Source: a virus. From it: 64,000 bases of DNA. Under the pieces are notes generated by a model. It saw nothing but the letters and a program-made list of their open reading frames with translations. It had not been told where the DNA came from and did not search any database. Every line of letters begins with the position of its first letter. Within the stretch, counting starts at the first letter, position 1. This document shows positions 1 to 29,227 of this stretch, piece by piece. The stretch lies in IMG/VR virus record IMGVR_UViG_2617270889_000001. The stretch is one strand, 5' to 3'. Position numbers and translations under genes: made by a program.

Positions 1-222
1 TGCCTCAGTGCCACCAGAGGTAAAAACGATTGATTCAGGATTGGCAGCGTTAATTAAACTAGCAACTTGAACTCTGGCTTGTTCAACAACCGTTGCAGCC
101 CGTTGTCCCCACTCATGTAAGCTGGAAGGATTGCCCCACTGTTGAGTCAGGACTGTTTGTATAACTGCGATCGCTTCTTTTCGAGTGGGAGTAGTAGCGC
201 TGTAATCTAGATAAATTTGCAT
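1..222 (-). CDS. Cysteine desulfurase (IscS/NifS-like class V aminotransferase), 5' part; continues beyond window start (host gene)
   Basis: Minus-strand ATG at 222 reads MQIYLDYSATTP...QWGNPSSLHEWG, with the family YLDxxATT and GNPSSxH motifs; translated by hand. Confidence 0.9.
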   Translation of the reverse strand, partial: MQIYLDYSATTPTRKEAIAVIQTVLTQQWGNPSSLHEWGQRAATVVEQARVQVASLINAANPESIVFTSGGTEA

Positions 223-440: not shown

Positions 441-1508
441 GTGCAACTTATCTCTAGACAAAGATATTTTTCATATATCTTTTTACTGATATTCTCCCTC
501 GCTGGTTGTCAACGAGTCCAGTCTTTCAATCAGCGTCCAGCACCTTTACCACAAGACCCTTTAGTTCAAGTTTACTTTAACCATTCTGAGTCTTCAGAAT
601 ACAAAGAAGCTTACCGTCAGCAAACTCGCTTGGGGGATGATTTAGAAAAAGAAATTGTCAATGCTATTACGCACGCTAAATCTACGATTGATGTGGCGGT
701 GCAAGAATTACGTTTACCCAAAGTTGCCCAAGCACTGGTTGATAGACAAAAAGCTGGGGTAAAAGTCAGGATAATTTTAGAAAATACCTACAGCAGACCT
801 TGGAGTAGTTTAACATCTGCTGAAGTAAGTAAGTTAGATAAAAGGGAACAAGAACGCTACAACGAATTTCGCAAATTTATCGATATTAACCAAGATAATC
901 AACTCAGCCCAGCAGAAATCAATCAAAGAGATGCTTTAATAATTTTGCAGAATGCTAAAATTCCCTGGATAGACGATCGAGCAGATGGTTCAGCAGGTAG
1001 CAGCTTGATGCACCACAAATTTGTGATTGTAGATAATCGCATTGTCATTATCACTTCGGCCAATTTTACTTTAAGTGATACTTATGGTGATTTCACAAAT
1101 TCCAATACTTTAGGCAATGCCAATAACTTATTGGAGATTGACAGCCCAGAATTAGCATCTTTATTTACAGAAGAGTTTAATATTATGTGGGGAGATGGGC
1201 CAGGAGGTAAGCCAGATAGTCGATTTGGGTTAGAAAAACCGATAAGATCGCCTAAAAAAATTACATTAAATCAAACTACAATTACTGTGCAATTTTCACC
1301 AACTTCTCCGACTGAACCCTGGAGTAATAGTAGTAATGGTTTAATTGGTAAAACTTTAGATTCAGCAACCAAATCTGTTGATATGGCGTTATTTGTCCTT
1401 TCCGATCAGCGACTTGCTAATATCTTAGAAAATCGCCATCAACAAAATGTACAAATTCGCGCTTTAATTGAACCACAATTTGCATATCGTCCCTACAAGG
1501 ACGGTTAA
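441..1508 (+). pseudogene. comA: 5' part of PLD-superfamily competence nuclease (cyanobacterial ComA/slr0197-like), truncated by prophage insertion
   Basis: Lipoprotein-type signal (FSLAGC); one HKD motif (MHHKFVIVD) and SANFT; ends abruptly at FAYRPYKDG*, before the second HKD and the C-terminal HhH domain expected for this family. Confidence 0.75.
1488..1503. other. Candidate attL core: CGTCC-ctacaa-GGACG
   Basis: 5-bp inverted arms with a 6-bp spacer, at the point where comA-like coding stops; geometry resembles a tyrosine-recombinase core site. Confidence 0.45.
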
Positions 1509-1519
1509 GGCGGCAAATC

Positions 1520-1592
1520 AATGAAGGAAGCAGGAAGACGAAAGAAGGATGAAGTTAAGTCATCCCTCTTCCTACGAACTTCTTCCTTCATT
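1520..1592. terminator. Purine/pyrimidine heptamer-repeat hairpin, probable bidirectional terminator
   Basis: AATGAAGGAAG (1520-1530) pairs with CTTCCTTCATT (1582-1592) between convergent genes; related hairpins at about 9487-9600 and 10746-10803. Confidence 0.55.
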
Positions 1593-2061
1593 CTTTTTCA
1601 ACCCGCGTGGCGATCGCCCTTAGTAAATCCGCCAAATCAACCTGAGACATCAACTCAAGGTGGAAGGATACCCCTTCACCTTTGACACCATTGAGGGAAA
1701 CTTTAGGTTGGGATAACCGGGCAATGATGTGCTGTGCCACCCTTGCGGCTTCTCTATCTGGCAATTGATCCACTACTGGAATTACGTCTTCAGCAAACTT
1801 GTACTCTCTCACTGGTTGCGGCGCATTCTCACTGGCGCAAATGGCTATTAGTTCATCTCTGGTATAACCTAAGTGCGGCGCTAGCTTCTCAAGGGTTTTA
1901 AGTTCTGGCTCTTTCACCTCACCTTTTAAAATTCGCTCAATAGCTGGAGGTGATAAACCGACTTTTTTAGCAAAAGCCCTTTTTGATAGATGCCCTCTTG
2001 CCTTCTCAATAATTTCTGCCAGTTTTTCTATGCCCTCGTAGGTGTACACAGTTTTTGCCAT
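1588..2061 (-). CDS. XRE-family HTH prophage repressor (CI-like)
   Basis: N-terminal HTH LSKRAFAKKVGLSPPAIERILKG...LEKLA; divergent from the early operon. Confidence 0.85.
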   Translation of the reverse strand: MAKTVYTYEGIEKLAEIIEKARGHLSKRAFAKKVGLSPPAIERILKGEVKEPELKTLEKLAPHLGYTRDELIAICASENAPQPVREYKFAEDVIPVVDQLPDREAARVAQHIIARLSQPKVSLNGVKGEGVSFHLELMSQVDLADLLRAIATRVEKE

Positions 2062-2105
2062 ACACCCAGAATTACTGTTATACGTGAAACTTTACAAGAT
2101 AGCAT

Positions 2106-2151
2106 TGCAACACTATGTGTTTCATGATAAAGTGCAACATATAGTGTTTCA
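2106..2151. promoter_or_regulatory. Two tandem 19-bp palindromic operators
   Basis: TGCAACA-CTATG-TGTTTCA (2106-2124) and TGCAACA-TATAG-TGTTTCA (2133-2151) in the divergent intergenic region. Confidence 0.75.
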
Positions 2152-2161
2152 AAGAAGGTTT

Positions 2162-2635
2162 ATGCGCGTTAGAAAAAAGGAAATAGATGATTTTGTTAGT
2201 GAAAAAATCATCTATTCACCCACTAATGAATATCGTCATTGCTTGCATATCTTTGCTGCAATCGGCAAAGAGTTAATTTCTATTTACGCTTTGAAGTCTT
2301 GCAAAAAACAGATTGCTGGACTTTCACCATTACATTTCAAAATTAAACAGTCTATAGGAAAAAGAGAAAATCCGGTAACTATTTATATAGATAGGGAACT
2401 AGATGAACTTTTGAAAAAGTTTGAAGGGATTCCCCGCTCTCATGTTTTAGAAAGATGTTTAATTTTGGAGGTTGATGAACGAATTTCTAAATGGAGATGT
2501 GAAACTCCACTGCAATTTATTGGTTTAATGTCGTCAGAAACGCCTTTGAAAGACCTTAAGGGCGAGGTTTCATTAGGCAATGAAAGCCCCGCACCTATTG
2601 GGCGGGGAAATAAGTACGCGCAGGTAGCGGCATGA
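2162..2635 (+). CDS. Cro-position regulator with ribbon-helix-helix-like segment; start revised to ATG 2162
   Basis: PVTIYIDRELDELLKKFEGIPRSHVLERCL is a strand-helix-helix pattern; the longer ORF start at 2042 overlaps the repressor and operators. Confidence 0.55.
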   Translation: MRVRKKEIDDFVSEKIIYSPTNEYRHCLHIFAAIGKELISIYALKSCKKQIAGLSPLHFKIKQSIGKRENPVTIYIDRELDELLKKFEGIPRSHVLERCLILEVDERISKWRCETPLQFIGLMSSETPLKDLKGEVSLGNESPAPIGRGNKYAQVAA

Positions 2636-2817
2636 TAACACCTGCACAGCTTCTCAATTCATCAGCAACCAGATATCAACAGGCTCTTAACAACCTGCTT
2701 AAGTTTTGGCACATCAACGGGCAGTGCAAAACCTGCCCATATCGCACAAATTGCAGGGTACTGATTGAGCAGCAGATAGCTATTAAGGAGGAGGTTAAAG
2801 TCCTAATAAAAAAATAA
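2632..2817 (+). CDS. Small phage hypothetical protein with CxxC-x-C motif
   Basis: ATGA overlap with the upstream gene; CKTCPYRTNC. Confidence 0.6.
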   Translation: MITPAQLLNSSATRYQQALNNLLKFWHINGQCKTCPYRTNCRVLIEQQIAIKEEVKVLIKK

Positions 2818-2839
2818 GTTGCGAATCTCACCTCGCAAC
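2818..2839 (+). terminator. Hairpin after first early genes (tR1-like)
   Basis: GTTGCGA-8nt-TCGCAAC immediately after the 2817 stop. Confidence 0.4.
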
Positions 2840-3012
2840 CTGAATAATTTATTCCTTTGTTTACAAACCAAATAAGAATCTAACAACTTGATATTTAGCA
2901 AGCGCTAAATACGGGATTGTTGTTACCTGATTGCATATTGGGTCTTTATTAGGTTTTTATTATCGCACAAAAACCCTTAGATTTCTAGGCTTCCAACGAC
3001 ATATTTGATAAT

Positions 3013-3033
3013 GCGATTTTTTATTAAAATCGC
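3013..3033. promoter_or_regulatory. Inverted repeat upstream of replication operon
   Basis: GCGATTTT-ttatt-AAAATCGC in an AT-rich intergenic region. Confidence 0.4.
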
Positions 3034-3077
3034 GTGTTTACGTATATACTTACATACTTTACAAGGAGAGTATACCA

Positions 3078-3977
3078 GTGTCCAATATCACGATTTTATC
3101 TGGTTCTGAATTAGATAAAAAGCACCAGCTAGAGCAATCAATATTAGAGGGCATTGAAGCGGGTAAAAAAGGCTTTCAGCAAGCCGCCCAAGCTTTATTA
3201 AGAATTGATGAACTTGCACTATGGAGGGGCGAGGCAGTTTCATTTGATGCCTATCGCCAAAAATTCAAGGCGGTGCTAGAAGATTTAGATATCACAGACA
3301 GACACTTAAACAGGTTACTTGCTGCTGAGAAGTGTGTACAAATGTTAAGACCAATTGGTCTTAACATTTGTACACACAAAGAAAGTCATATCCGACCGTT
3401 GACCCAACTTAAGGAGCCGCTTCAGGTACAGCAGGCTTACAAACGAGCGCTAGACATGGCTGAGAAGGAAGGGTGCAATCTCAAAGCCGAACACGTACAA
3501 AAGGCTGTAGAAGAGATAAAACCGCCCAAGGTGAGGCTTGGGAAGTCACCACGCCCCCCAATTGGGGCAACAGTGCGGATACTTCCCCACTATGCCGAAG
3601 AGGAGTTTCACGGTGCAGAAGGTGTAATTGCCCAGCATCCATCAGTCGATCGGTGCATTGTCAGATTTGGAGATGAAACCAGCAAGCTGATTCCTGACAA
3701 CATGCTTGTGTGGGTAGAAGAAGTTAGGGAAGTAACCTCAACCAAACAGGAAGCTAAGGAACAAGCGATCGCCCTTGGGGTAAGAGTCGGATTACAAGCA
3801 TTGCCAGATATCGAGCGTAATGAGGGAATTGCCAGCGAGAGGGAGCAGATTGAAGTGGAGGTGGCGATCGCTTCTTTCTTGCGATTGCTACCCAAGTTTT
3901 CGTACCAGCAGAAAGGTTTGGTGTATGAGCAATTGATGAAAAGTGGGTTTGCGCCAAAGAGGTCACAAGCAGCATGA
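3078..3977 (+). CDS. Phage DNA-binding-type hypothetical protein with C-terminal KOW/SH3-like domain
   Basis: AAQALLRIDELALWR...SFDAY...RHLNRLLAA helical motif typical of phage early proteins; GATVRI...EGVI...CIVRF KOW-like; RBS AAGGAG. Confidence 0.6.
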   Translation: MSNITILSGSELDKKHQLEQSILEGIEAGKKGFQQAAQALLRIDELALWRGEAVSFDAYRQKFKAVLEDLDITDRHLNRLLAAEKCVQMLRPIGLNICTHKESHIRPLTQLKEPLQVQQAYKRALDMAEKEGCNLKAEHVQKAVEEIKPPKVRLGKSPRPPIGATVRILPHYAEEEFHGAEGVIAQHPSVDRCIVRFGDETSKLIPDNMLVWVEEVREVTSTKQEAKEQAIALGVRVGLQALPDIERNEGIASEREQIEVEVAIASFLRLLPKFSYQQKGLVYEQLMKSGFAPKRSQAA

Positions 3978-4306
3978 AATATACCAATTTACCCCAACCA
4001 ATTCCAAAACGAATATTGGGGATAGCTATTAACCGTCAACCTGGGGCGACTGGGCTTTGGGTAACGAGTAAGTACGATGTCTGGCATCTGCCAAACGGAT
4101 TGATATTCAAGCTAGGCGATCCCCTAAGAGTGAGTTGGTTCAAAGAAGGTAGAGAAGCGACAAGGGAAGAAGTACTTGAATCAATCAACAGTGGCTACCC
4201 AATCCTTCTAGAAGCCGCTCAAATCGATGGTGCTGGGGCTGTTAAGAAATTGGAAGAAATGCGCGATCGGGCTTTGGAATTATTACCAGTGACGGTGACG
4301 GTATGA
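3974..4306 (+). CDS. Phage hypothetical protein
   Basis: ATGA-coupled on both sides within the early operon. Confidence 0.7.
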   Translation: MKYTNLPQPIPKRILGIAINRQPGATGLWVTSKYDVWHLPNGLIFKLGDPLRVSWFKEGREATREEVLESINSGYPILLEAAQIDGAGAVKKLEEMRDRALELLPVTVTV

Positions 4307-5451
4307 GAGAAAGCTGTATATCGCACAAACCCAAATCACTGCTACTGGTTATCCGTGAAGACTATTTTAGGTTAGCAAAGTGTGACAAAGTACTATCCGC
4401 TTTACTTTCAGTTTTTGAATATTGGGCCAATGGTGAAATCTCCAAAAATCCCTCTTTAGCAGAAGAATCAATAGATTTAGGGATTCGCACAATATCAGAA
4501 ATTGAAAAACTGACCTTGTGGATTGCGACAGACAAACAGATCCGCACCAAGCTTAAGGAGCTTGAAGAATTAGGCTTCGTATCATCTTGTAAAGGAGTAG
4601 GCAATCACACCGCATACAGCCTTCACGTTCCCTACTTGCAGCAAGCCTTAGATGCACTTGATTGGTCTCTATCTTTATCAGAATTACGAAAACAAAACCC
4701 TTCTCGATGCACCCATACCTCCGGTTTATTAACCGAACCCCCTCCGGTTAATAAACCGCACCCCTCCGGTTTATTAACCGAACCCCCTCCGGTTAATAAA
4801 CCGCACCCCTCCGGTTTATTAACCGAACCACTATATATAGAAGAATTTAAGAATTTAATTAAAGAATGTGTAAGAAGCGCTGACGCACAAAACACACACA
4901 CTGACGACGAGGACGAGGTTGATTTTGCTAGTGCAACCTCTCGTAGAGAAGAAAACCAATCACCTGTAGATCCTTTTCTTGCCACCAATCCCAAAGAAGA
5001 ACCTGCGCTTTTGCCCCACGTCTTACCGCTTGAATCGAATATTCCGGCGAATGAGAATAACAATCATTTTCATAAAACAGCAGATAGAGTGCGATCGCAG
5101 TGGGAGCAAACAGGGGTATTGCCAAAAATCCCAATGGAAATAGATGCATGGGCGGCGATTGATTTAGGGCAAGAGGTGATTAATGCTTACCGTTTGAGTG
5201 GCAGGATAACCACTATCAAGCGGGGTGATATTGTGCCTGAATTTGCCTTATACGTGAGCGGTCAAAACAAAGGTAAAGATGTTGATTACGGCTACGCATA
5301 TATCAAAAAACTGGAATTAGATCCGCGCCAATGGGAGACTCTAGCCGCATTGGTTTTGAAGTGGCAAACATCACATCAGACGGGTAATCGCAGTATCAGC
5401 ATTGTCCGTGAGGTCAAACGTAGACCGCTAATTGAGCTTAATTTGAGGTAA
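4303..5451 (+). CDS. Phage replication initiator (lambda O-like: N-terminal wHTH, internal iterons)
   Basis: QIRTKLKELEELGFVS wHTH motif; in-frame repeat block; followed by a loader-like gene. Confidence 0.75.
   Translation: MRESCISHKPKSLLLVIREDYFRLAKCDKVLSALLSVFEYWANGEISKNPSLAEESIDLGIRTISEIEKLTLWIATDKQIRTKLKELEELGFVSSCKGVGNHTAYSLHVPYLQQALDALDWSLSLSELRKQNPSRCTHTSGLLTEPPPVNKPHPSGLLTEPPPVNKPHPSGLLTEPLYIEEFKNLIKECVRSADAQNTHTDDEDEVDFASATSRREENQSPVDPFLATNPKEEPALLPHVLPLESNIPANENNNHFHKTADRVRSQWEQTGVLPKIPMEIDAWAAIDLGQEVINAYRLSGRITTIKRGDIVPEFALYVSGQNKGKDVDYGYAYIKKLELDPRQWETLAALVLKWQTSHQTGNRSISIVREVKRRPLIELNLR
4718..4867. repeat. Putative replication origin: 45-bp tandem repeat (2.5 copies) = five alternating 14-bp iterons, then AT-rich tract
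   Basis: Units start at 4718, 4763 and 4808; CGGTTTATTAACCG alternates with its reverse complement CGGTTAATAAACCG; followed by ctatatatagaagaatttaagaatttaattaaagaat. Confidence 0.8.
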
Positions 5452-5454
5452 ATC

Positions 5455-6093
5455 ATGCTAACTCGTGAAAATTTTGAAGCCTGCATTCAGGAATTAGAAA
5501 GTTTTTATAACGGCACTATTCTTAACGGAGGAATTTTAGAATCTGTTTGGTACAAGACTTTAAAGCACTTACCTTTGGAAAAATTACAAAGTGCGATCGC
5601 GGGATGTTTTAAGAAGCATCCACGCCAGTACAATTTTTTCCCCTCAGCCGGACAGATTTTAGATTTTGCAAATTTTGTAGGGGGCGAGTATAGGGAGCCA
5701 GGGGAATCCATATTAGGGGATTTCAGCTTACCTATATTGCCTTCTGTTGAAGAAAGGCTTACGCCTGAGCAAAAGGCTGAATTAAATAAGCGCGGGAGAC
5801 TCCAAGCGCGGATTATAGTGAATGCTCAAAGCTGGATGACACCAGAACAAAAAGACGCTCTTGTAGAGCAACTAAAGCTTAAAGAAACTCACGAGTTAGA
5901 GGCGATCGCTTCTACGTCTGCGCGATTACCACGTCGTCCTAAATTCAACAATCTTTCTTTGACGATTAAAAATTTAGAGCAGGAGTTGGGCATACAATGC
6001 GACTACGAAGAAGAGGAAGTCACGAGTGAGGTAAAAGCCTCAAGCTATGACACAAGAGCAATTGCTCGTCAGTGGTTGGAGGGATCTCGATGA
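5455..6093 (+). CDS. Helicase loader/inhibitor-like protein (lambda P / SPP1 G39P-like position and motif)
   Basis: WYKTLKHLPLEKLQSAIAGCF...FFPSAGQIL; directly after the initiator. Confidence 0.6.
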   Translation: MLTRENFEACIQELESFYNGTILNGGILESVWYKTLKHLPLEKLQSAIAGCFKKHPRQYNFFPSAGQILDFANFVGGEYREPGESILGDFSLPILPSVEERLTPEQKAELNKRGRLQARIIVNAQSWMTPEQKDALVEQLKLKETHELEAIASTSARLPRRPKFNNLSLTIKNLEQELGIQCDYEEEEVTSEVKASSYDTRAIARQWLEGSR

Positions 6094-6542
6094 CTAAAAT
6101 TGACTTCATCCTCCGGCAATCCGCAACCAACAGAGATCAACTCACAACCCTAAGCGACACCCAATTAGAAATGGCGTGGAGCATCGCTCGCTATGACGTA
6201 AAAGCGGCTTACAGGTACTGCGTGATGATGGATGCCAAAAACCAGATGAAATGCCCATCCTGTGGCAAGGAATTTGTAAATTCCTACGAACAACATGATG
6301 GAAGTATGGCTTTTGTTTGTGCGTCGTGTAGTCCAAGAAGGAAGAAGAATTCGGAATTCCCTCTGCCTTCATTGACACTAAACCCATCCGACTATCACAC
6401 CGTATGCACTGGGAAACCAATTTGCATTGATGCCCAAACCGCCAAGCATCAAGCTAAGAAATGCAAAATCATCAACAAAGTTACGGGAGCTTGTGTGGTG
6501 CGAACTTTGGTTATGGTGGGCGATCGCGGGTACTGGCAATAA
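6090..6542 (+). CDS. Zn-ribbon phage protein; start revised to ATG 6090
   Basis: CPSCG...CASC; ATGA overlap with the upstream stop. Confidence 0.65.
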   Translation: MTKIDFILRQSATNRDQLTTLSDTQLEMAWSIARYDVKAAYRYCVMMDAKNQMKCPSCGKEFVNSYEQHDGSMAFVCASCSPRRKKNSEFPLPSLTLNPSDYHTVCTGKPICIDAQTAKHQAKKCKIINKVTGACVVRTLVMVGDRGYWQ

Positions 6543-6563
6543 AAACATAAAGGTATTGTAAAA

Positions 6564-7220
6564 ATGATTGATAGAGAAACTCTTGGTAAAACTGTTCGCC
6601 GTGCCTTGGTCAATTGGGCAAAAGAGCAAGAAAACCCTCCTACTTTTTGGAATGACTCGGATGAGTATCAAGAAGTAAACGAACATATTGGCGAAGCCGT
6701 GCAACGAGCAATATTGAGAGAGTTTGCCGACCATGTTGTTTGGTTCAGTGGTGACGACGAGCGCCATGCCATACCCTCAGAAGGGATGGTAAAACTAATC
6801 AACTACGTAGAAAAAGAACTAAACCAAAGCAACGTTAATCTTGCCAATTTGCACAGTTCAATTGTTTGGGGTATCCGTAAAGTTAAATCTGATGAACGTG
6901 ATATTGCAGTCAGATTTTTAGCTTTTAAGGATGACACTTTAGCTTACTTACGAGCACTGGTTTTAATTACCGAGATGGCCAACGGCGACCAAACCCACGC
7001 TGAGAAAAGAATTCTGCTTAATCATCTAATCAAGCAATTAGAAGGGGCGATCGTTAAAATTCGCAACGTTGAAAACTATCTCCTTACCAATTATTGGGAA
7101 AGGGAGGATGTTTTTAAATCCGATTATCCGAACCGATATTGGCGAGAAAAGGTTGCTCAGTTAGAAGAAGAAATTAAAAGTTTGAAATCTGGTAAGCCGC
7201 CAAATGAATCACCATTTTAA
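6564..7220 (+). CDS. Phage hypothetical protein (helical)
   Basis: 218-aa ORF in the operon, overlaps the next gene. Confidence 0.7.
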   Translation: MIDRETLGKTVRRALVNWAKEQENPPTFWNDSDEYQEVNEHIGEAVQRAILREFADHVVWFSGDDERHAIPSEGMVKLINYVEKELNQSNVNLANLHSSIVWGIRKVKSDERDIAVRFLAFKDDTLAYLRALVLITEMANGDQTHAEKRILLNHLIKQLEGAIVKIRNVENYLLTNYWEREDVFKSDYPNRYWREKVAQLEEEIKSLKSGKPPNESPF

Positions 7221-10200
7221 AATTGGCTCAATCGCCTCTGGTATGGGAATGCACCTGCATGGATTGAAGCAAATTGGTGGTGTCCCTGTGTGGGCAATCG
7301 AATGTGATGAGGCGATCGCCCACTGCTACCACCAAAATCACAAAAGCGAAGTCTACATCAAAAAAGTTCAAGACGTTGCCCCATCTGATTTGGCAGATAT
7401 TGATTTGTTAATAACTACCCTCAGCTGTAAAAATGCATCCATTGCCAACGCTAACCGGGGCGAATTGCCAGAAGATGCAGCAGCCGGGATAGCCACCGGT
7501 GACATCATCAAAGCCTTAAAGCCCCAGTACTTCATGCTTGAGAACGTCTGGGGATACCGCAAATTCGAGTCTTTTAAACAAATTCAAGCGGCGCTGGATG
7601 AGTGTGGCTACTATTCCCGCTTTTACAAATTCAATTGCCGTAATTGGGGTATTGCTCAAAGCCGCGATCGCCTTTATCTTTTGGCAAGCAAGGATGGTAC
7701 TTTCGCTGATCCTGTACCTCCACAAATCTCAGAGGTTGGGTGGTATGAGGTGATCGCTGACTTGATTGATGAGCTACCAGAAACAACACTTGCACCTTGG
7801 CAGTTGCGTAAGTTTCCAGAGTTAGCCCGTGAAGCTAATTCTTGTTTAATCCCAGACCACTCTAATTGGACAAATTTGATTCCTCAGTCTGCCCCTTGCT
7901 CAACAGTTAGAGAAGGACACCAAACCTTTAAAGCTTTAATCAAACGTGCCGGTGGGGGAAGAGATAGCGATCGCCTTTACCAAAGTGATGAACCATCTTT
8001 CACTATCCGAGCGATGGGTAGAAAGTCTGATAATCACTCTCGCATAGCCGACGCGATCGTGGGTGACAGAATTGTTGCGGTGACTCCTCGCGCTTGTCTG
8101 CGGTTTTTTGGCGATAAAGAAACAGCAGATAATATCTGGCTTCCTCCTACCAAGTCGCTAGCGAATGAGGTAGTAGGCAATGGCGCTAGTTGGGTGATGT
8201 TCAAAAGCCTATTTGAGCATTTATCCCAGTCTGTGCCGACGTTGCTTTCCATCGAATCAAACTCCTTGAGGGATATTTCGACTTCGCTCAATACAAGTGG
8301 TGGCGAAATGGTTGAGAACTTTTTTCAGATAGGCGATCGCGTTGAACTTGTATGCGATGTTTTATTTGGTGATATAAACCTCAAAGCTAAAAACCCCAAT
8401 GCCAAACTAGCCATTGCTGGAGAGTGCGCCGAAGTATGCGGCGTTCGAGGTACAAGACTTGCTCTTAGTGTTGGCGGTGAGCCATTTGATTGTCCCATTA
8501 GGTTAGTGAAAAAAAATTTAGATGTTCCTACCGCCGATACCGCAATGTTTACGTCAGAGCAGGGTATAGGGACTCAGGTAGAGAATAATTCTCATTCTGA
8601 ACCTTGCCCCCCTCCACCCAAAGAATCAGATAAGTGGTATACACCACCCAATATTCAGGATTTACTCACGCAGGTACTCGGCGCAGTTGACCTTGACCCT
8701 TGCGCCGATGACGGTAAACATATCAAAGCGGCAAACCATTACACCGCATCTGATGACGGACTTGCTCAGGAGTGGTACGGACGGGTGTTTATGAACCCTC
8801 CCTATTCATGCCCTGGCAAGTGGATGGCGAAATTGCAAGCAGAGATAGAGGCTGGAAGGGTAACGGAGGCGATCGCCCTGGTTCCGGCAGCGACAGATAC
8901 CAATTGGTTGCACCCGCTCCTTGACACTCAACCCATCTGCTTTTGGAAAGGCCGCATCAAATTTTTAGATACGAACTATCAACCAAAACTCTCGGCTAGG
9001 CAATCACACTGCCTGCTGTATTGGGGTACTAATGCACAGAAATTCAAACAAGTTTTTGACGAAGTTGGAACTGTGAAAAATATAAGCCAGTCTGCTCTTC
9101 TCTGCGAGACGCTGCGCGATGGGGTTTCCCCAAGTGGAAGAACTGGCGTTGAATCTGAAACTGCTTGGAATCCTGCTGATTTTGGAGAAGTACCACGCAT
9201 TGCTGATGGCGATCAACTAACGATTTTTTATGACACCCATGAGCCACCAGACCCCGACAATTACCCGTCTATCGCGGCGTATGAACAGGCATGGCAGGAA
9301 TGGGAGAAAAAGCTGACTAGGAGCAACGTAAAACAGGGAGTTCACGTTGTTGACCAGCTTGGATCGTTGGGGATTATCAAAGAAAACTTGGGGTTTGGGT
9401 TTGTCGTTGATTGGTTGGGTGACGCTGTTGCTTACAACTGGGAGCGAGACAGCGATCGCATTGATACTTTTAAGATCGCAAATCAAGGAAGGATGAAGGA
9501 GGAAGGAGGAAGAAGTGATGAAGTTGAATCTGAATCATCATCCCTCTTCCCGACGCTCGCAGACTCGCTACCGCTACGCTATCTCCCCTCTTCCTGCGAA
9601 CTTCCCAATCAAGTTTTTAAAAACAAGGAGCAAAATACTGTGACAACTTTCCAATTTTCTGGCACACAGGCGATCGCCTCTCAAATTGCCCAATTACAAG
9701 AGCAATTGAACAAACTCACCGCCTCTTTAGAGCCATACCAAGAGTGCGAACAAAAAGCTGAGGAATTGCGCCAAGAAGTGGCGCAATTTGGGCGGGAAAT
9801 GGTAGATAAGGGAATTCCCCAGAATGACATTTTAAGTTGGGCGCGATCGCTTTATAGCGCGGCTAGTGGTGTGGAGTTAGTGGAGAGTGATAGTAGTGTA
9901 ATTGCTGCTCAAAATGAAATTATTAGTGAATTGAAAGCCGGAAATCATGTATTGCGTGAGCAATATAGCGAAGTCATAAGACAAAGAGATTTACTAATAA
10001 AGCAGGTTGAAGACAATGATAATGATATGGATGTGCAACTAGCGGAACAACAATTAATACCAGAAGTGGAAGCTTCAAACAAAGAACTTACCGAAGGCGT
10101 AGCAAGCTTTACTGAAGGCGATCGCGTTTGTGTAAATGCTATACACGAATTAGAACACTTACTCGAAAGACTTGGTACAGTAGTTGGAATAAAAGGTAAC

Positions 10201-10746
10201 TCTATTGCCGTACTTTTTGACGCAACAGATAATGAAGGTCAGCACGAAATAATTACCGATAGAAGTAATTTGGTGCTACTTTTGAAAGCTACTCCAGACA
10301 ATCACGCACACATTAAAGCTTCTAACTTTATAGCTACTATTCGTACCAAAGCCGGAGCAAATAACATTAATTGGCAGAATATCAGCGAACTGTGCCAAGG
10401 CAATCATCTTATTTTAAAAGAATTGCTTTTAACGACCACTACAAAAATTCAAAAAGAACTGATTCAAAAGCTACCTCAACTGATGGCTGATTACATTGCT
10501 GAAACTGGTGACATTACAGATATGCAGCTTGTTGGCGATAAATTTAAGTCTGAAGTTGAGGCGTTGTTAGAAGTAAAAAAGTCTCTGGTGTATCAAGCTG
10601 GTGATTGGGTAAAAAGTACAGAATCGGGTGAAATCTGGCAAGTACGAAATTTTGACGGTGAGTGGTTGTCGGTGAAACGAGACAACAAGATTGGCTCACT
10701 GCATAAATCAGAAGTTGAGTTGATTCAACAAGAAATCGCTGCTTGA
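7204..10746 (+). CDS. Multidomain DNA methyltransferase: C5-cytosine MTase + KOW + phage N6-adenine (Dam-like) MTase + coiled-coil/KOW tail
   Basis: C5 motifs IASGMG (I), TTLSCK (IV), MLENV (VI), QSRDRLY (VIII), VVGNG (X); N6 motifs KWYTPP, DLDPCA, WYGRVFMNPPYS. Confidence 0.85.
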   Translation: MNHHFKIGSIASGMGMHLHGLKQIGGVPVWAIECDEAIAHCYHQNHKSEVYIKKVQDVAPSDLADIDLLITTLSCKNASIANANRGELPEDAAAGIATGDIIKALKPQYFMLENVWGYRKFESFKQIQAALDECGYYSRFYKFNCRNWGIAQSRDRLYLLASKDGTFADPVPPQISEVGWYEVIADLIDELPETTLAPWQLRKFPELAREANSCLIPDHSNWTNLIPQSAPCSTVREGHQTFKALIKRAGGGRDSDRLYQSDEPSFTIRAMGRKSDNHSRIADAIVGDRIVAVTPRACLRFFGDKETADNIWLPPTKSLANEVVGNGASWVMFKSLFEHLSQSVPTLLSIESNSLRDISTSLNTSGGEMVENFFQIGDRVELVCDVLFGDINLKAKNPNAKLAIAGECAEVCGVRGTRLALSVGGEPFDCPIRLVKKNLDVPTADTAMFTSEQGIGTQVENNSHSEPCPPPPKESDKWYTPPNIQDLLTQVLGAVDLDPCADDGKHIKAANHYTASDDGLAQEWYGRVFMNPPYSCPGKWMAKLQAEIEAGRVTEAIALVPAATDTNWLHPLLDTQPICFWKGRIKFLDTNYQPKLSARQSHCLLYWGTNAQKFKQVFDEVGTVKNISQSALLCETLRDGVSPSGRTGVESETAWNPADFGEVPRIADGDQLTIFYDTHEPPDPDNYPSIAAYEQAWQEWEKKLTRSNVKQGVHVVDQLGSLGIIKENLGFGFVVDWLGDAVAYNWERDSDRIDTFKIANQGRMKEEGGRSDEVESESSSLFPTLADSLPLRYLPSSCELPNQVFKNKEQNTVTTFQFSGTQAIASQIAQLQEQLNKLTASLEPYQECEQKAEELRQEVAQFGREMVDKGIPQNDILSWARSLYSAASGVELVESDSSVIAAQNEIISELKAGNHVLREQYSEVIRQRDLLIKQVEDNDNDMDVQLAEQQLIPEVEASNKELTEGVASFTEGDRVCVNAIHELEHLLERLGTVVGIKGNSIAVLFDATDNEGQHEIITDRSNLVLLLKATPDNHAHIKASNFIATIRTKAGANNINWQNISELCQGNHLILKELLLTTTTKIQKELIQKLPQLMADYIAETGDITDMQLVGDKFKSEVEALLEVKKSLVYQAGDWVKSTESGEIWQVRNFDGEWLSVKRDNKIGSLHKSEVELIQQEIAA
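9121..9138. repeat. Small dispersed repeat core GGGGTTTCCCCAAGTGGA, in-frame inside the MTase gene
   Basis: Identical 18-mer at 38784-38801 and a related copy near 29313. Confidence 0.7.
9542..9594. repeat. 35-bp small repeat element flanked by 9-bp direct repeat CCCTCTTCC
   Basis: CCCTCTTCC at 9542-9550 and 9586-9594 flank cgacgctcgcagactcgctaccgctacgctatctc; the hairpin at 1560-1580 shows the uninterrupted form. Confidence 0.65.
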
Positions 10747-10803
10747 ACCAGAAGGAAGAAGGAAGAATTCTTCTCTACCTTCTTCTCTCTTCCTTCTTCC
10801 TTT
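10746..10803 (+). terminator. GAAGGAA/TTCCTTC heptamer hairpin after the MTase gene
   Basis: agaaggaagaaggaagaa ... ttccttcttcctttg. Confidence 0.5.
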
Positions 10804-10964
10804 GTTAAATCAAAGGGGATATTTTGTCTATTTGTCCATACTGCCAAACTCAATTTGACTTAATTGATGGCTTTGGTAATCACTGCTCTCGCCGTTGCGC
10901 GGTTCGCCACGGCAATAAAAATTTGTGGTCTGAAGAAGAGAACTTGAACACTTAAAATCAATGA

Positions 10965-11231
10965 TTGGCTCAAGCCCAGGCAGGCATCGCCCAGATGTGG
11001 AATAGGCTTTACGAGCCAGAATACCAAGAGCGCGGCATTAATCAAATATTCATTTTTACTGCACAATTTGGGGAATTGATAATAAGATTAGAAGTTAATC
11101 CTTTTGAAGACGAACTTGCCAAAAAGTTGGTAGCACCTGAACCACAAGCTTTTCAAAATTGGCAAAAGAAAGTTGAGGAGCAATTCAAGAAATTGTACGG
11201 AATTAGCATTAAACAGTGGCAAAAGCGGTAA
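10965..11231 (+). CDS. Hypothetical protein (start uncertain, possibly degenerate)
   Basis: TTG-start ORF; the same frame has a Cys-rich ORF at 10824-10955 separated by two stops. Confidence 0.4.
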   Translation: MAQAQAGIAQMWNRLYEPEYQERGINQIFIFTAQFGELIIRLEVNPFEDELAKKLVAPEPQAFQNWQKKVEEQFKKLYGISIKQWQKR

Positions 11232-11509
11232 AATACCAGTATTTTTACCACTGCGCTTTTATGTGCATCCTGTTGTCAAACGACCATCTAAGAGAACTTA
11301 CGGAGATATATCACGTACAAGACGGTACAAAGATTCCTGTGCTAATTGAATTTCTTTGGTCGCTCCGACATTTACAAGATAAGCTGGAAGACTTGCCGCC
11401 AATGGAGAATAAAACCCACTTAGTGGATCGGGCGCAAGAGATGGATTGCGCGATCGCGTCTGAAATTATAGAATCTGTTGAAAAATGCTTACAATCGATT
11501 CCCCCCTAG
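11216..11509 (+). CDS. Hypothetical protein
   Basis: Overlaps both neighbours on the same strand. Confidence 0.5.
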   Translation: MAKAVKYQYFYHCAFMCILLSNDHLRELTEIYHVQDGTKIPVLIEFLWSLRHLQDKLEDLPPMENKTHLVDRAQEMDCAIASEIIESVEKCLQSIPP

Positions 11510-14202
11510 CCACAGATACCGCCGCACGCTACACCGCCGCCCATTTAATTGAAGTGGCAAAACAGGAAAACAACTTTGCGCCTTTAGTAACTGTGGATTT
11601 TGGGAAAGCAGAAAGCATAGTTGTTGAATACCAAGAAACAATCACTCTTCCTGAAAGCTGGGAAAGTGTAAGGGCGATCACTTCCAACGGACAAACTTAC
11701 ACCCCAGCAATTGATCCCGAATCGCCTCAAGCGGGGGAATTTGTCTACAATCCCTACACCAACACAGTGCAAGTTTATGGGACAGTAGGGCGGAGTCTTC
11801 AAATTTACGGTAATACCCAAACAATTAAATTCTTCCCTCCCCTGCTTCCCCCTCCCTACCCTCAACTTTTTACCAATTTGCCATTAGAGGGGGCTATTCA
11901 ATTTACTCGCCAATTTGAACAACAACCATCTGCCCAATTTGAATTAGAGCTAAGGCTATCTAAAGCGCAAATACAAAGTATTTTTGCACCGGGGACAGAA
12001 TTGGATTTGTACGGGTTGCCGTTGAGAATTAACAGTTTAAATATTAAAGAATTACCCCGATCGATATACCCAGATGGACGTTGTAAAATAAGCGCCTCAC
12101 TGGGTTCGCGCTGGGAAAATTATCTTGATGAGCCGTGCTTCTTGCGGTCGGATGGGGGAAATAGTACATCAATCAGTGAGCCATTTCAAGACACCGAATG
12201 CACCGCGCCCACGCCATCACTAACCGATCCCAACTTCAACACGACCATACAGCAGTTGCTTGCCAAGATAGGTATTGCCTACACTGGGCCCAACCTTGCG
12301 TCTGTACCAATACCTCAAGGTACAGCAAGGGATACAGTGGTGAATCCGTTGCAGCTACTGAGCGATCGCTTGTTAGTCGCAAATTCTTTTGTGAGGTGGA
12401 GTAACGCATCTGCGGTTGAGGTGGTTCCGATTGGTAGCGGAAGGGTGTGGAATTATCAAGAATCTGATATTAAAGGAGAGGATGGAGTTGATACGAGTTT
12501 TGAGGCGATCGCCAAACTCAGCAAGCGCCGACTGACAGCAATTCCTAACTTAAATCCCCCGCCCCCCGACTTAGTGAATTTTCCAAGCGAGGTGCAGTTG
12601 CCACCAGTGCCACAACTACGGGGCGAGTTACCAACAGCGCTGGCGTTTGAATACCCAAATAGCGAACTAACTGGGGAATTTAGCGAGATTCGATCTGACC
12701 AGCAAGAGCGCACCCAAGGGCAAAAACCTAGATATACAAGAAAGCCAAGAAAAATAGAAGAACGGATCGACGGCGATAAAAATGCTCATATTCCTTTAGA
12801 GGGTGTGCAGTCCATCCAAAATATGAGCTTGATTTTTGATATTGGCGGACAAACTAAAACCCGCTCAACTACCACTACTGAGGATGGGGCGACGGTTAAA
12901 GTTGTTGACGAGATTTGGGGTTTCGTTTGCTATGCCGCTCAAATTTATGATGATAGCCGCGATCGCCTTAATGGCAATCCTAATGATTATTGGGTGTGCT
13001 TGAAGCGGACAACCACAGATTACACCTACGACGAAGATACTGGCTACTTACTTTCTACTGCAACATCTGGCTATAATACTGTACGCTTCCGCCAAGAATC
13101 AGCGGACAATCCCGAAACACTGGGGATGGATTCAGGCGATCCAGAACTCGATTTGTATAAATTTATTCAAATACCAGTTCTTGGGCGCACTAGCTACTAC
13201 CTCAAATTGATGCCTGAATACAGTAGCGAGGGGTTATTTGAATTAGTAAAAGTGTGCAACAGAGACGGTACTAGTACACTTCAGCCGCTAATTAATCCAG
13301 ACTACGCGCCGCCGTACTATGTGGAGTATGAGCGCACGGAATCAGTCGCGTTTGCAAGTCGCCCCAACCCAGATAATGAAGGTAGAACCGGAAGTGAAGA
13401 CGACCCCCTTGCGCCTGATTTAACTGCAGGGGAAGAATCAAAATTTGAAGCTTTCACTCAAGTGACTGTTGCTACATACCAACAAAAGTTAATAGGGTTT
13501 GAGGGTGGCTACCCAACTTACGAGCGCGGGGAAGAAAATACACCCCAAAAGTTCACCAAGTACATCAAACAATTCAAGGCTCAAGGCCCCGCGATCGCCA
13601 CTGCCCTAGAAGAAATCTCAATTGAAGAGGGCACTGGAGAACTGCCCACAGCCACTAGAAGTCCACCACAATTTACCAAAGAACAACCTGCTGAAAAACC
13701 TAATAAAACCGAAGAGGAGAAACAGAAATATCGGTATTTTCTGCAAACTGCGGGGTATACGGCGGCCGCCCCGATTAATGGCAGTGAAAGCTTCCCCTTA
13801 GCTAAAACTTTTGAGCAAGCGCTGACTGCTGCTCGGTGTAAATTGGCTATTGAAAATTGGAGAAATGGATTTACAGAGACGTTGCAAGTTGGGGGGAATT
13901 TGGGGATTCGAGAGGGCGATCGCTTTAACTACACTTGCAATGGTGAATTTCGCCAAAGGATAGTACTAGGAGCGCAAACTACACTCAATATTTTGGGCGC
14001 GGTTGACGGTGTGCCTAAGGTGACTTCTGTTACTTCCCTCACATTGGGGCGATGGATGTTGCCAGAGTTGACTTATAGTAAAGTGCCAGTGCCCAAGGAG
14101 CCGAAAGCGCCTAGATTTAATATCACCGTAACTGATGTGGTAAGCGCCGAACTAGGCAGTATTATTGATTGGGCGAAGATTAGAAGTAGAAGAAATCCTT
14201 AG
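11485..14202 (+). CDS. Large virion protein, probable tail hub/tip protein
   Basis: 905 aa, beta-rich, T/P/E-rich; hub-like segments (LLSDRLLVANSFVRWS; C-terminal NLGIREGDRFNY...VTSLTLG); adjacent to the tail fibre cluster. Confidence 0.5.
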   Translation: MLTIDSPLATDTAARYTAAHLIEVAKQENNFAPLVTVDFGKAESIVVEYQETITLPESWESVRAITSNGQTYTPAIDPESPQAGEFVYNPYTNTVQVYGTVGRSLQIYGNTQTIKFFPPLLPPPYPQLFTNLPLEGAIQFTRQFEQQPSAQFELELRLSKAQIQSIFAPGTELDLYGLPLRINSLNIKELPRSIYPDGRCKISASLGSRWENYLDEPCFLRSDGGNSTSISEPFQDTECTAPTPSLTDPNFNTTIQQLLAKIGIAYTGPNLASVPIPQGTARDTVVNPLQLLSDRLLVANSFVRWSNASAVEVVPIGSGRVWNYQESDIKGEDGVDTSFEAIAKLSKRRLTAIPNLNPPPPDLVNFPSEVQLPPVPQLRGELPTALAFEYPNSELTGEFSEIRSDQQERTQGQKPRYTRKPRKIEERIDGDKNAHIPLEGVQSIQNMSLIFDIGGQTKTRSTTTTEDGATVKVVDEIWGFVCYAAQIYDDSRDRLNGNPNDYWVCLKRTTTDYTYDEDTGYLLSTATSGYNTVRFRQESADNPETLGMDSGDPELDLYKFIQIPVLGRTSYYLKLMPEYSSEGLFELVKVCNRDGTSTLQPLINPDYAPPYYVEYERTESVAFASRPNPDNEGRTGSEDDPLAPDLTAGEESKFEAFTQVTVATYQQKLIGFEGGYPTYERGEENTPQKFTKYIKQFKAQGPAIATALEEISIEEGTGELPTATRSPPQFTKEQPAEKPNKTEEEKQKYRYFLQTAGYTAAAPINGSESFPLAKTFEQALTAARCKLAIENWRNGFTETLQVGGNLGIREGDRFNYTCNGEFRQRIVLGAQTTLNILGAVDGVPKVTSVTSLTLGRWMLPELTYSKVPVPKEPKAPRFNITVTDVVSAELGSIIDWAKIRSRRNP

Positions 14203-14213
14203 TTATTTTTATT

Positions 14214-14378
14214 ATGTACACCACTGCTAAAGTAGCCGAACCTTGGCGATCGCTATTCCCCAAAATCAAAGAATCTACTACCAGTATTGAAGTTACGGTG
14301 CGCGGTCAAAGTTTCACAATTGAGATTCCCAAGAGGCGATCGCAGGTCACTACCAACAGAAATTTACAATTTCGCTAG
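14214..14378 (+). CDS. 54-aa hypothetical protein (absent from ORF track)
   Basis: MYTTAKVAEPWRSLFPKIKESTTSIEVTVRGQSFTIEIPKRRSQVTTNRNLQFR; stop overlaps the convergent stop at CTAG 14375-14378. Confidence 0.5.
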   Translation: MYTTAKVAEPWRSLFPKIKESTTSIEVTVRGQSFTIEIPKRRSQVTTNRNLQFR

Positions 14379-15901
14379 CCTGAAAATGTCTTTTTCTTTT
14401 TATCTTCATTGAAAATTGTTGGCTGCGCTAATCGCTTGACAATTGTAAATTCTTCATTTACGACATCTTTGAAATCACCAACTCTTTTAAGTTTACTGTA
14501 GGGCACAAATAAATCCTTGTTTTCCAAAGGTGGCGGCATTTCACCCACGTTCACGGGCTGGTAATTAACATCTGGGAAAACGCTTGCATTTATTGGTGAA
14601 GAGAATATTGCATCGTTTGGCGTTAAAGTGGTATTTTCTTCGCCTTCCAAAAACTCTTCTTTGATAAAGATAAAAACTTGTTGCCTGTAGGGATAATCTA
14701 ATGCAATATCATAAGTACCGGGGATATCTACTTTCAAAACAATGCCGCCAACAGAACCATAAGCTGTAAATGGTTTGTCTCCACTTGGCATTGGTTTTTG
14801 CCCTGTGGCGGGGTTTGTCGGATTAATGCTTGCTGAAATATTTGCCCAAAACCCGCCACTCAAAATTAATCCCACTTGGTTGTTTTCAAAAAGCCATAAC
14901 AGACCTAGATTACAGCATGGATTAACTCTTGAGCTTAAATTATTTATATCTCCTAAATCCCAAATTACAATTCCTTTGTCTCTTGAATTGGCGCTAGAAT
15001 CACCATCGCTATCTTTAACTCCAGAGATTGCTAAATACTTTATAGTGCCAGATGAATTTTGATACTTTATGCAGAATGAAATTGTTTCATCGAAAAAGCC
15101 TAGTAATTGATTGCTGGATTGCACTGAATCAGTAATTGTTGGATTAATTATTATAAAAGGATTGGTTGTGGTTGACAAAGGCATCTGGATACTAATATTT
15201 GTTATTTGATTAACCCTATCTTTGCATCCAATAGAATCTACTTGACAATATCCACTAGCATAGTCATAAATAACTCCTTCCAATATTTCTTCTCTAGCAG
15301 ATGCTGTTAACAGCTTTAGAGTTTTGTCCGAGCCATACCCTAGGCTATAATAAGCACCATTTAATACGCTTTCGTCAAACTGCTCTCTTGTATTCCTACC
15401 AATATCAAATGTATTTAACCTAGTTGTTTTAAATCCTAAAATTAATACTTGAGGATTTAAAAAAATCAAATCTGGAACTTCTTTTTTAATAGTGTAAACA
15501 CTGTTTTTGATTTCACAAATATAATATTTATTATTTGACTCTATTGGGTAAAGAAAAGGGTTGCTATTGGGGTCAACCCCGATAGGGTAATAAACATCGA
15601 TAATAATAGCTATACCTAAATCAGTAACTTTTTTGATGGGAACCGATCGCCTATATTCAATAATTCTTCTACTGCTGGTATTTTCCGTTTCATTGGCAGC
15701 ACCAGTGAGATACCAATTACCTTTGTCAGTGAGAAGGGCGATCGCCTCTCCTGCTTCTAGGTTAGTTAAATAGGTTGCTCTAACATTAGCGCCGCTAACT
15801 CTCAAGCTTACCGTTTGTGCGGCAACCCCTTTGGGAACCCGAACGGTAAGCATATTGGTGATAACAAATAGCTTTTTGAGTTCTTCAAAAGTAACCATCA
15901 A
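14375..15901 (-). CDS. Tail-associated protein with short N-terminal attachment-like segment and AT-rich variable body (candidate receptor-binding protein)
   Basis: Last gene of the leftward tail operon; visibly lower GC and no HIP1 over about 14400-15640. Confidence 0.55.
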   Translation of the reverse strand: MMVTFEELKKLFVITNMLTVRVPKGVAAQTVSLRVSGANVRATYLTNLEAGEAIALLTDKGNWYLTGAANETENTSSRRIIEYRRSVPIKKVTDLGIAIIIDVYYPIGVDPNSNPFLYPIESNNKYYICEIKNSVYTIKKEVPDLIFLNPQVLILGFKTTRLNTFDIGRNTREQFDESVLNGAYYSLGYGSDKTLKLLTASAREEILEGVIYDYASGYCQVDSIGCKDRVNQITNISIQMPLSTTTNPFIIINPTITDSVQSSNQLLGFFDETISFCIKYQNSSGTIKYLAISGVKDSDGDSSANSRDKGIVIWDLGDINNLSSRVNPCCNLGLLWLFENNQVGLILSGGFWANISASINPTNPATGQKPMPSGDKPFTAYGSVGGIVLKVDIPGTYDIALDYPYRQQVFIFIKEEFLEGEENTTLTPNDAIFSSPINASVFPDVNYQPVNVGEMPPPLENKDLFVPYSKLKRVGDFKDVVNEEFTIVKRLAQPTIFNEDKKKKTFSG

Positions 15902-16539
15902 AAATCTGCGCTAACGTTTTCGTAGCCAAAAAATCCACTTGGGCTACTACTGGGTGCGGGATGAGCTATCCAAGTGTCTCTTGTGCCATCCGACCCATAT
16001 ATTAACTTTCCACCTGAATAGAAAGTGCCACTGTAAATCCCCACAACCCAGTATTGAATTGTATTTGCCGATCCTGGGGGGAACTGGGAATTGTTACCAA
16101 GTCTGTAAATTTTAGCAGTCGCTCCCCCCGATATAATTTCAATTTCGTTACCGTATACTTGCTCTACTGGTATGCGTATTTCTATCGGGGGCGAAGAATT
16201 AGATCCACAAACCAAGATTCTTTCCCCAAAGCTCGCATTGTATGGGGTTTGTGTGGTTAGCACGGTTAAAGGAGCAGCGCCGCCGCCACTATCATTGTTA
16301 TTGCTTGCACCATACCGATGCCATCTACCCACCCCGTCATTTGGGGCAACTATTGATGGTAGGCTTTCTGCTGTCGATGAGGAACTATTGTATCTATACC
16401 AACTTGAACTTCCAACGCCATCATCCAAAACCGTCAAGAAAAGGTTAGGTACACGCTTTGGAGTTGTAGAATTATTTAAAGTTTTTAAAACGGTGATGCT
16501 AGCAACTGATAGAGAATCGGTAATAAAAGCCATATTCAA
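15898..16539 (-). CDS. Tail fibre/spike-associated protein
   Basis: WYRYNSSS...PSIVAPNDGVGRW resembles N-terminal segments of tailspikes; G/S-rich. Confidence 0.55.
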   Translation of the reverse strand: MNMAFITDSLSVASITVLKTLNNSTTPKRVPNLFLTVLDDGVGSSSWYRYNSSSSTAESLPSIVAPNDGVGRWHRYGASNNNDSGGGAAPLTVLTTQTPYNASFGERILVCGSNSSPPIEIRIPVEQVYGNEIEIISGGATAKIYRLGNNSQFPPGSANTIQYWVVGIYSGTFYSGGKLIYGSDGTRDTWIAHPAPSSSPSGFFGYENVSADF

Positions 16540-19405: not shown

Positions 19406-19861
19406 CTAATTTAATGCCTCTTGCACCTCTTGTTCGTTTACGGGATAAATTTTTAGTTCTTCAGCACGCGACTGCCCAGGTATTTGAGCCTGCCAATTTG
19501 GATCGGGTTCTGTAAGCGCAAGTAAAGCTGTGAGATTATCTTTACTATTTTGAGATATAAAAGTCTTCACTATTTCAAATAGTATTGAAATATTTATTCT
19601 GTCGTTTGCATTGATGACCATTTCAATTCTGTCTAGCAACCCCGGTATTTTAAATGTTTCTAAAGCTTCTTGCGGCGTTATCCCTTGTTGGAATAAATCA
19701 ACCAAAGTTAATTGTTTTGGTAATTTTTCTTGTGGTACGGGATTATTGATTAGCGGTTTTTGATTCAGCAGAGAAGCGATCGCGGGAAAATTCTGCGCTG
19801 TTACCAATTGCTCGTATTCTGATAATTCGAGTTCGTCTCTAAGGATTGTAATTTTACTCAT
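19406..19861 (-). CDS. Tail fibre assembly-like hypothetical protein
   Basis: Position between fibre-like genes; helical and acidic. Confidence 0.5.
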   Translation of the reverse strand: MSKITILRDELELSEYEQLVTAQNFPAIASLLNQKPLINNPVPQEKLPKQLTLVDLFQQGITPQEALETFKIPGLLDRIEMVINANDRINISILFEIVKTFISQNSKDNLTALLALTEPDPNWQAQIPGQSRAEELKIYPVNEQEVQEALN

Positions 19862-20984: not shown

Positions 20985-21007
20985 GCTTCAAGTCCGCAGA
21001 GGAACGA

Positions 21008-21295: not shown

Positions 21296-21304
21296 ATTTA
21301 CTCC

Positions 21305-21688: not shown

Positions 21689-21690
21689 AT

Positions 21691-28484: not shown

Positions 28485-28490
28485 AGGATA

Positions 28491-28602: not shown

Positions 28603-28665
28603 TATTCCACTACAGTTTAGCTAGTGGTTGTATAAAGCACTAGAGGCTAGTCAATATTGTCATAT

Positions 28666-29219: not shown

Positions 29220-29227
29220 TCCATAGT

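Follow-up and report, generated by a model that had tools for sequence, protein, structure and literature searches.

The interrupted gene at the left end of the window

The window, by which we mean the whole stretch of 64,000 nucleotides that was analysed, begins with the 5' end of a nifS-like cysteine desulfurase gene on the minus strand (1..222), recognised from its open reading frame and from the Aminotran_5 domain found on the attB contigs described below. Next to it, on the plus strand, lies a 355-codon open reading frame (441..1508) with a GTG start, whose product carries a lipobox, LAGC, at residues 20-23 of its N-terminus (a lipoprotein signal), one complete PLDc_2 domain (Pfam) with a single HKD motif at residues 191-208, and the C-terminus FAYRPYKDG. 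The best 120 of thousands of relatives are Nostoc-group proteins; 73 of these 120 are exactly 543 residues long, and 93 contain the exact string FAYRPY/SEALDMMG (the slash marks the break) where the window reads FAYRPY/KDG and a stop codon. In the 543-residue homologues among them, two PLD domains are followed by an HhH_3 domain at the C-terminus, and some bear database names such as "competence protein ComE" or "ComEA-like helix-hairpin-helix protein". The truncation after one HKD motif that the first-pass annotation had described is therefore borne out: intact homologues, rather than ending near FAYRPY, run on through SEALDMMG to residue 543, and their second HKD motif (residues 395-412) falls past the break.

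The break lies after residue 352, between codons Tyr352 and Ser353, and the window holds the comA/comEA 5' fragment, which encodes residues 1-352 of 543 and then KDG and a stop from phage-derived codons. Because the second HKD motif and the HhH DNA-binding domain are both absent from the 355-residue product, we infer that ComA should be inactive in the lysogen.

The 3' part of the gene and the extent of the insert

A tblastn search with an intact homologue found no comA 3' part within the 64-kb window. The far end was located in a reference genome, G001 (main contig C1, 8,234,322 bp), which matches the window at 100% and shares all sampled window words, and in which the window corresponds to G001:C1:3197204-3261203. 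Residues 1-356 of the intact protein align to G001:C1:3197644-3198711 and residues 351-543 to C1:3271350-3271928 on the identical strand. The missing half of comA, which had been predicted to lie at the other end of the element, is thus found 72.66 kb downstream of the 5' part and beside a recombinase gene. The insert ends 10,148 bp past the window, at G001:C1:3271351, and measures 72,656 bp in total; its left 62.5 kb (1498..64000) lie in the window and the remainder outside it, in a right-end region that we refer to as L003 (G001:C1:3259204-3275203).

The same object is on record as interruption element #1 of N. punctiforme PCC 73102 (Hilton, Meeks and Zehr, 2016, PMC4874684; Table B, S1 File). 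That entry names the interrupted gene 'phospholipase D/transphosphatidylase', gives the direct repeat CTACA, position 1053 and the xis gene Npun_R2637 (serine), and lists a length of 72.656 kb at NC_010628 3198696-3271351, coordinates that agree with ours. The element is not termed a prophage there, competence is not mentioned and no excision data are given; in the main text the gene appears only in Table 1, and elements outside nif genes receive only general possibilities. Our literature searches for Npun locus tags returned no matches, and those for papers on resequencing or prophages of the strain returned none of relevance. The insertion itself has hence been known since 2016, and what is added here is its identity as a phage, the identity of its target as a competence gene, the evidence for excision and the recurrence of the site.

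The insert carries a tailed-phage genome

The first gene of the insert encodes a CI-like HTH_3 repressor (1588..2061, minus strand; Pfam HTH_3, 1e-08), is transcribed towards attL and ends 80 bp past the comA stop codon, within the 100 bp that the first-pass annotation had given for the start of phage genes. Further into the window lie genes for a large DNA methyltransferase (7204..10746, plus strand; PHROGs 116/111/363) and, all on the minus strand, a tail tape measure protein of 2074 residues (22260..28484; PHROGs 4704/1533/1272), a terminase large subunit (30121..31752; phrog_2, 1.4e-21), a portal-like protein (38550..41270; phrog_21, 5e-59), a major head protein (42566..43702; phrog_29, 1e-12) and a MuF-like head morphogenesis protein of 1405 residues (47520..51737; PHROGs 595/115 and others, with an HHH_3 domain). 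The right arm, beyond the window, contains a lysin-like gene (L003:2416-3228, minus strand; PHROGs) and genes for Rep_1, DUF5131, HD and PNK-phosphatase proteins. The Rep_1 gene (L003:4375-4974, minus strand) is of the rolling-circle plasmid type and could support extrachromosomal maintenance of the phage.

Since terminase, portal, capsid, tape measure, lysin-like and CI-like repressor genes lie together in one att-bounded element, the insert is, judged from these genes, the prophage of a temperate tailed phage (Caudoviricetes), as the first-pass annotation had proposed. A close cultured relative was sought and rejected: the terminase is less than 30% identical to any in the phage collection searched, its matches being Streptomyces and Arthrobacter phages, and for this reason no cultured relative is known.

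Identity of the interrupted gene

Several indirect lines of comparison support the assignment of the split gene to the slr0197-type comA/comEA. The protein obtained by rejoining the two halves has two PLDc_2 domains, with HKD motifs at residues 191-208 and 395-412, and an HHH_3 domain at residues 480-541 (60 bits, cutoff 27); it also matches TIGR01259 and TIGR00426 (comEA), both below their cutoffs. The neighbouring nifS-like gene agrees with a published survey that used slr0197 as its comA reference and describes a conserved "cluster aq: nifS; comA" (PMC5101192, supplement). In that supplement N. punctiforme is scored "3 2aq" and other Nostocales "1aq", a score that fits two comA halves at the nifS locus. 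In a second survey (Nies et al., 2020), the bit-score quotient for ComEA is 0.9 for this strain, compared with 1.3-1.4 for other Nostocales, and ComEA is the only one of 13 factors with a value below 1. We attribute this low quotient to truncation of the comA product by the insert, and it is because the ComEA quotient lies below 1 that N. punctiforme was not marked "potentially competent" in that survey. The domains of the protein, the neighbouring nifS-like gene and both surveys thus support the comA identity that had been proposed from the sequence, through an indirect comparison with slr0197.

Synechocystis slr0197 knockouts are not transformable, and the literature places ComA at the membrane with its domains in the periplasm. 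Wendt and Pakrasi (2019) make no strain-level statement on comA of N. punctiforme. All 271 good-quality genomes of the family contain comA. Other families of the phylum have full-length matches with 50-64% identity, and among the genomes sampled the small picocyanobacterial ones yielded no match.

Attachment sites and recombinase

Both junctions of the insert share the pentamer CTACA, which marks the crossover region at attL (1493..1497) and recurs at attR (L003 12149-12153), so that the common att core predicted by the first-pass annotation exists. By symmetry, the central dinucleotide of this core is probably AC. The attL sequence reads ...atcgtccCTACAaggacggttaagg and the attR sequence ...ttaactctcaCTACAgtgaagcctta, and contigs of the excised forms (attB and attP, see below) change partner exactly at the core. 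The P' arm of attP, AGGACGGTTAAGGCGGCAAAT (1498..1518), is conserved in a second lysogen, L019, whose match to the window extends through position 1518. When attP is reconstructed, it forms an imperfect palindrome with the arms ATTTGCCGTTTTAACTCTCA and GGACGGTTAAGGCGGCAAAT around CTACAA; 15 of 20 positions match, and an arm match of at least 15/20 is reached by only 0.44% of random 65-mers drawn from the window. An inverted repeat at the break, CGTCC-ctacaa-GGACG, had also been pointed out. It is indeed present at 1488-1503, where it joins a host half-site to a phage half-site, but we rejected this 5-bp repeat as a signal, as 77 repeats of equal geometry occur in the window and it is not significant on its own.

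Directly left of the comA 3' part lies a gene for a 446-residue recombinase (L003:10790-12130, minus strand) with Resolvase (PF00239), Recombinase (PF07508) and Zn_ribbon_recom (PF13408) domains. The protein scores 470 bits (cutoff 375) against the NCBIfam equivalog NF041201, recomb_XisF, titled "fdxN element excision recombinase XisF", and by this match is assigned to the XisF family of large serine recombinases. Its ATG is only 18 nt from the core (L003:12130-12153), and in the circular form the genes for the CI-like repressor and the recombinase are co-oriented across attP. Because of this short distance, integration would cut the recombinase gene off from the circle's upstream region, that is, from the co-oriented repressor gene, so that in the prophage the recombinase would have to be expressed from transcripts that start in the flanking host DNA.

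The element carries no XisH: nine matches were found in the genome, none of them between 3198696 and 3271351, which rules out an XisH encoded within the element as its directionality factor. Two small open reading frames beside the recombinase gene (L003:10309-10515 and 10497-10766) gave only weak, sub-cutoff zinc-ribbon-like matches.

Two further observations concern recombinases of this kind. A 59%-identical homologue from another sample also adjoins a Rep_1 gene (L023:5575-6525). The N. punctiforme genome contains a second XisF-family recombinase gene (G001:C1:6073725-6075209, plus strand; 534 bits), which may mark an unrecognised element, given that the catalogue of Hilton et al. has just two entries for the strain.

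Excision rebuilds comA in public sequencing runs

Contigs from public runs of the same strain were aligned on window positions 1-3000; runs are coded X and studies P. These assembled contigs report the presence of a form, not its proportion, and minority forms can drop out. A 543-residue protein, P0001, is the exact join of the two comA halves and is encoded on Logan contigs from five runs, among them SRR6394276, SRR12750589 and SRR14512088. On one side of the core the flanks of these attB contigs match the window at 100% over 2.5 kb, on the other side they match L003 at 100%, and their single mismatch falls in the overlap just before the core.

Three DNA-like runs of study P3 (X7, X9 and X10, which carry a flag that the reference DNA may come from them) contain both products of excision, and an attL contig was not found in them. 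Their host-side contigs match the window up to position 1497 and then read GTGAAGCCTTAGATATGATGGG, which is attB; the overhang beyond the match is 56-100 letters long and begins GTGAAGCCTTAGAT... Their phage-side contigs, 15-26 kb in length, match from position 1493 onwards and are preceded by ...TTGCCGTTTTAACTCTCA, the end of the recombinase gene, which gives attP; here the overhang exceeds 255 letters and ends ...GCCGTTTTAACTCTCA. The same pair of attB and attP occurs in X8, an RNA library of study P4. We demonstrate, at the level of sequence, that precise excision rebuilds the 543-residue comA at attB and generates a circular junction at attP, in agreement with the earlier proposal that excision could restore the gene.

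These contigs also bear on the view that the insert is a dead one, that is, a cryptic and immobile prophage, with the attB contigs coming from a different strain that was never lysogenised. The reference genome and several studies do show the integrated form only. However, over stretches of 2.5 kb and 3.8 kb the attB contigs match the flanks at 100%, and at the protein level about 1.4% separates the next closest strain; attP junctions exist; and neither the two parts of comA nor the recombinase gene show any decay, all being intact. We therefore regard a dead insertion as extremely improbable.

Another view is that the insert behaves like the fdxN element, its excision being confined to terminally differentiating heterocysts, in which case ComA would have a heterocyst-specific role. 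The host does form heterocysts. Yet attB is the only host-side form assembled from the bulk cultures of X7/X9/X10 and X8, in which heterocysts are a small minority; the element has a full phage genome that forms attP circles, and it has no xisH; and comA is without a known heterocyst role. Taken together, these observations make a heterocyst-type element very unlikely.

The integrated form is seen in other runs. X1, X3 and X18 (studies P1, P2 and P7) cross attL in one piece, and X13 (study P5) contains attP together with an attL contig whose phage part extends 25 nt beyond the core, just below our 31-letter rule. A 60-base attL query, a weak search that relies on two sampled words, suggests that attL is also present in other samples of P3 and P4. 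The state of the prophage thus seems to vary between samples within these two studies. The ratio of phage to host contig depth was about 0.16-0.17 in X7, X9 and X10; contig depths were rejected as copy numbers, and this ratio is kept as a hint only. Across the runs, laboratory stocks appear to differ in whether the phage lies inside or outside the chromosome, and hence in the state of comA.

Such variation could be read as a regulated switch, or active lysogeny, modelled on the Listeria comK prophage, in which the element leaves and re-enters comA on a signal (stress, differentiation of hormogonia, akinetes or heterocysts, or symbiosis), persists as a non-lytic episome and turns competence on and off. 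The pairing of attB and attP in X7/X9/X10 and X8, where no attL contig was detected, is in line with this idea, as are the depth ratio in the three DNA runs, which would fit an episome kept at low copy number in polyploid cells, the Rep_1 replication gene, the mixture of samples with attL words and samples with attB and attP within P3 and P4, and the relationship of the recombinase to the developmentally controlled XisF. Against it, contig depths are not copy numbers, X7, X9 and X10 are perhaps replicates, the attL word search depends on two sampled words, and the differences between samples may reflect clonal lineages, such as mutants derived from a cured clone, rather than conditions. Moreover, neither re-integration nor a trigger or a directionality factor is known, and ordinary spontaneous induction followed by curing explains the same data. 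We consider a regulated switch rather unlikely, and give a similarly low chance to the reading that the phage alternates between the integrated and a stable low-copy extrachromosomal state, with comA and DNA uptake as a reversible, heritable on/off trait. If this were true, the on/off state of comA would vary between cultures or cell types, and true prophages would be connected, through an XisF-type recombinase, with the heterocyst elements that are excised during development.

Recurrent insertion into comA

Related phages occupy the same codon in at least three other Nostoc sources. A related-locus search of genome contigs with the recombinase gave no confirmed relative; a search for homologous proteins did find recombinase relatives. 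One protein, P0117 (367 residues, 83% identical), likewise reads FAYRPYKDG... near its end. Its contig, L019 (GCA_006365015.1), has an attL site with the same upstream genes as the window; the sequence at this junction is ...ccTTACAaggacggttatagg, and the genes behind it are phage-like, with 72-75% identity to window positions 2626-3951. Lysogens represented by attR are L020/L021 (GCA_036916595.1, SRR28386300) and L022 (SRR5947240), in which recombinases 80-82% identical to ours adjoin comA from codon 352 and the P arms are homologous. Given that L019, L020/L021 and L022 share this codon, a lineage of Nostoc phages uses, as judged by these junctions, comA codon 352 as its attB.

Other elements enter comA elsewhere. 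Two genomes from two other genera of the same family, G161 and G066, have comA split at residues ~393-398 by inserts of 11.7 kb (L013, G161:C11:8800-24200, positions 1472-13167) and 9.3 kb (L014, G066:C22:1-12600, positions 1051-10346). Both inserts carry, beside the 5' part of comA, tandem tyrosine recombinases (360 and ~635 residues; Phage_integrase) and a DUF6262 gene, an arrangement that resembles a recombinase-in-trio element. A homologous trio (71%/51%/41% identity to that of G161) lies in the opposite orientation in G193 (L017, G193:C68:1-9000, positions 2687-6587, and L018), where comA is split at residues ~202-213, and this homology indicates that the same element family has hit comA at two sites. 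Further splits occur at residue ~110 in G256, across contig ends, and at residues ~380-399 in G359, a member of another family, where the insert is ~53 kb long. Among the six largest open reading frames near the ends of the G359 insert (L024/L025, G359:C29:89900-99900 and 134700-144700) there was no Pfam match and no recognisable recombinase. On the evidence of these split genes, comA is a repeated target of unrelated elements, at other sites and in other genera.

Interpretation and comparison with known systems

We think it very probable that the insert is a temperate phage in comA, still live as a recombination unit, that was integrated by its own recombinase, would inactivate comA, excises precisely and recurs at the same codon; for such a phage the block to transformation would probably be protective. 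According to this model, the phage's XisF-family large serine recombinase would integrate the 72,656-bp genome at CTACA within comA, leaving the integrated state with only the 355-residue ComA product, and excision would restore the intact 543-residue comA (attB) together with a circular or concatemeric phage genome (attP). Blocked transformation would protect the element from deletion by incoming DNA, a logic proposed for other mobile elements in competence genes and reviewed in PMC12378983. The target, comA, is moreover conserved and is not essential in culture. That the lysogen loses competence, and that the phage gains from it, we infer.

A close parallel is provided by the comK prophages of Listeria monocytogenes (A118/phi10403S), which are likewise tailed prophages in a competence gene whose precise excision restores the frame. 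The A118 integrase is a large serine recombinase too. The two systems differ in that comK is a regulator, whereas comA/comEA belongs to the uptake machinery, and in that non-lytic, signal-dependent excision and re-integration have been demonstrated in Listeria and are hypothetical for the Nostoc element. Similarly, the Bacillus subtilis skin (SpoIVCA) and SPbeta (SprA) elements are phage-derived, split a host gene and rebuild it through excision by a large serine recombinase. Their excision is tied to the terminal mother cell in sporulation. With the fdxN element of Anabaena/Nostoc sp. PCC 7120 and its XisF, the comA element shares the recombinase family (NCBIfam equivalog). However, the fdxN element is without a virion gene set in the literature searched, depends on xisH and xisI and leaves the chromosome in heterocysts alone, whereas the comA element has a full phage genome, has no xisH and is found excised in bulk cultures.

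Mobile elements have been reported in comYC, comGA, comFA, pilQ, comM, ssbB and other genes, and the hypothesis of Croucher 2016 has been applied to them, as described in the sections of the review considered here (PMC12378983). Like the elements in those sections, the comA phage shows targeted insertion into a DNA-uptake gene at a site that is recurrent within a host lineage; unlike them, it comes from a cyanobacterium, no such case appearing in the same sections, and the gene it enters encodes ComEA as a fusion of PLD nuclease and HhH. Judged by the literature searched, no mobile element that targets a competence gene had been described from a cyanobacterium before. The occupation of the same codon in several strains, together with unrelated elements in comA elsewhere, brings a new phylum into the conflict of transformation with mobile elements. 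A complete phage with an XisF-family recombinase also lends support to the long-standing view that the interruption elements of heterocysts have phage ancestors. Finally, N. punctiforme PCC 73102 / ATCC 29133 is a main model for cyanobacterial differentiation and plant symbiosis, and differences between stocks in a 72.7-kb phage and in the state of comA matter when data from different laboratories are compared.

HhH domains outside the intact comA

The N. punctiforme genome encodes two further HHH_3 proteins, a 345-residue lipoprotein (L011 1342-2379; G001:C1:7685394-7686431, plus strand) and a 177-residue protein without an obvious signal peptide (L009 1162-1695, plus strand), which could partly replace the DNA-binding role of ComA. 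HHH_3 domains, the domain type lost from the interrupted comA, are also present in proteins of the phage virion module: a ComEA-type HHH_3 in the MuF-like protein (window 50321-50497, minus strand; G001:C1:3247524-3247700) and another in a 188-residue open reading frame after the capsid gene (window 42170-42298, minus strand). Many Nostoc genomes have ComA versions of 468-479 residues that end before the HhH domain (P0092-P0110; G033, G041, G197 and G276), and in some of them the HhH part forms a separate frame, adjacent or distant. The linker around residues 468-486 seems to be prone to breakage.
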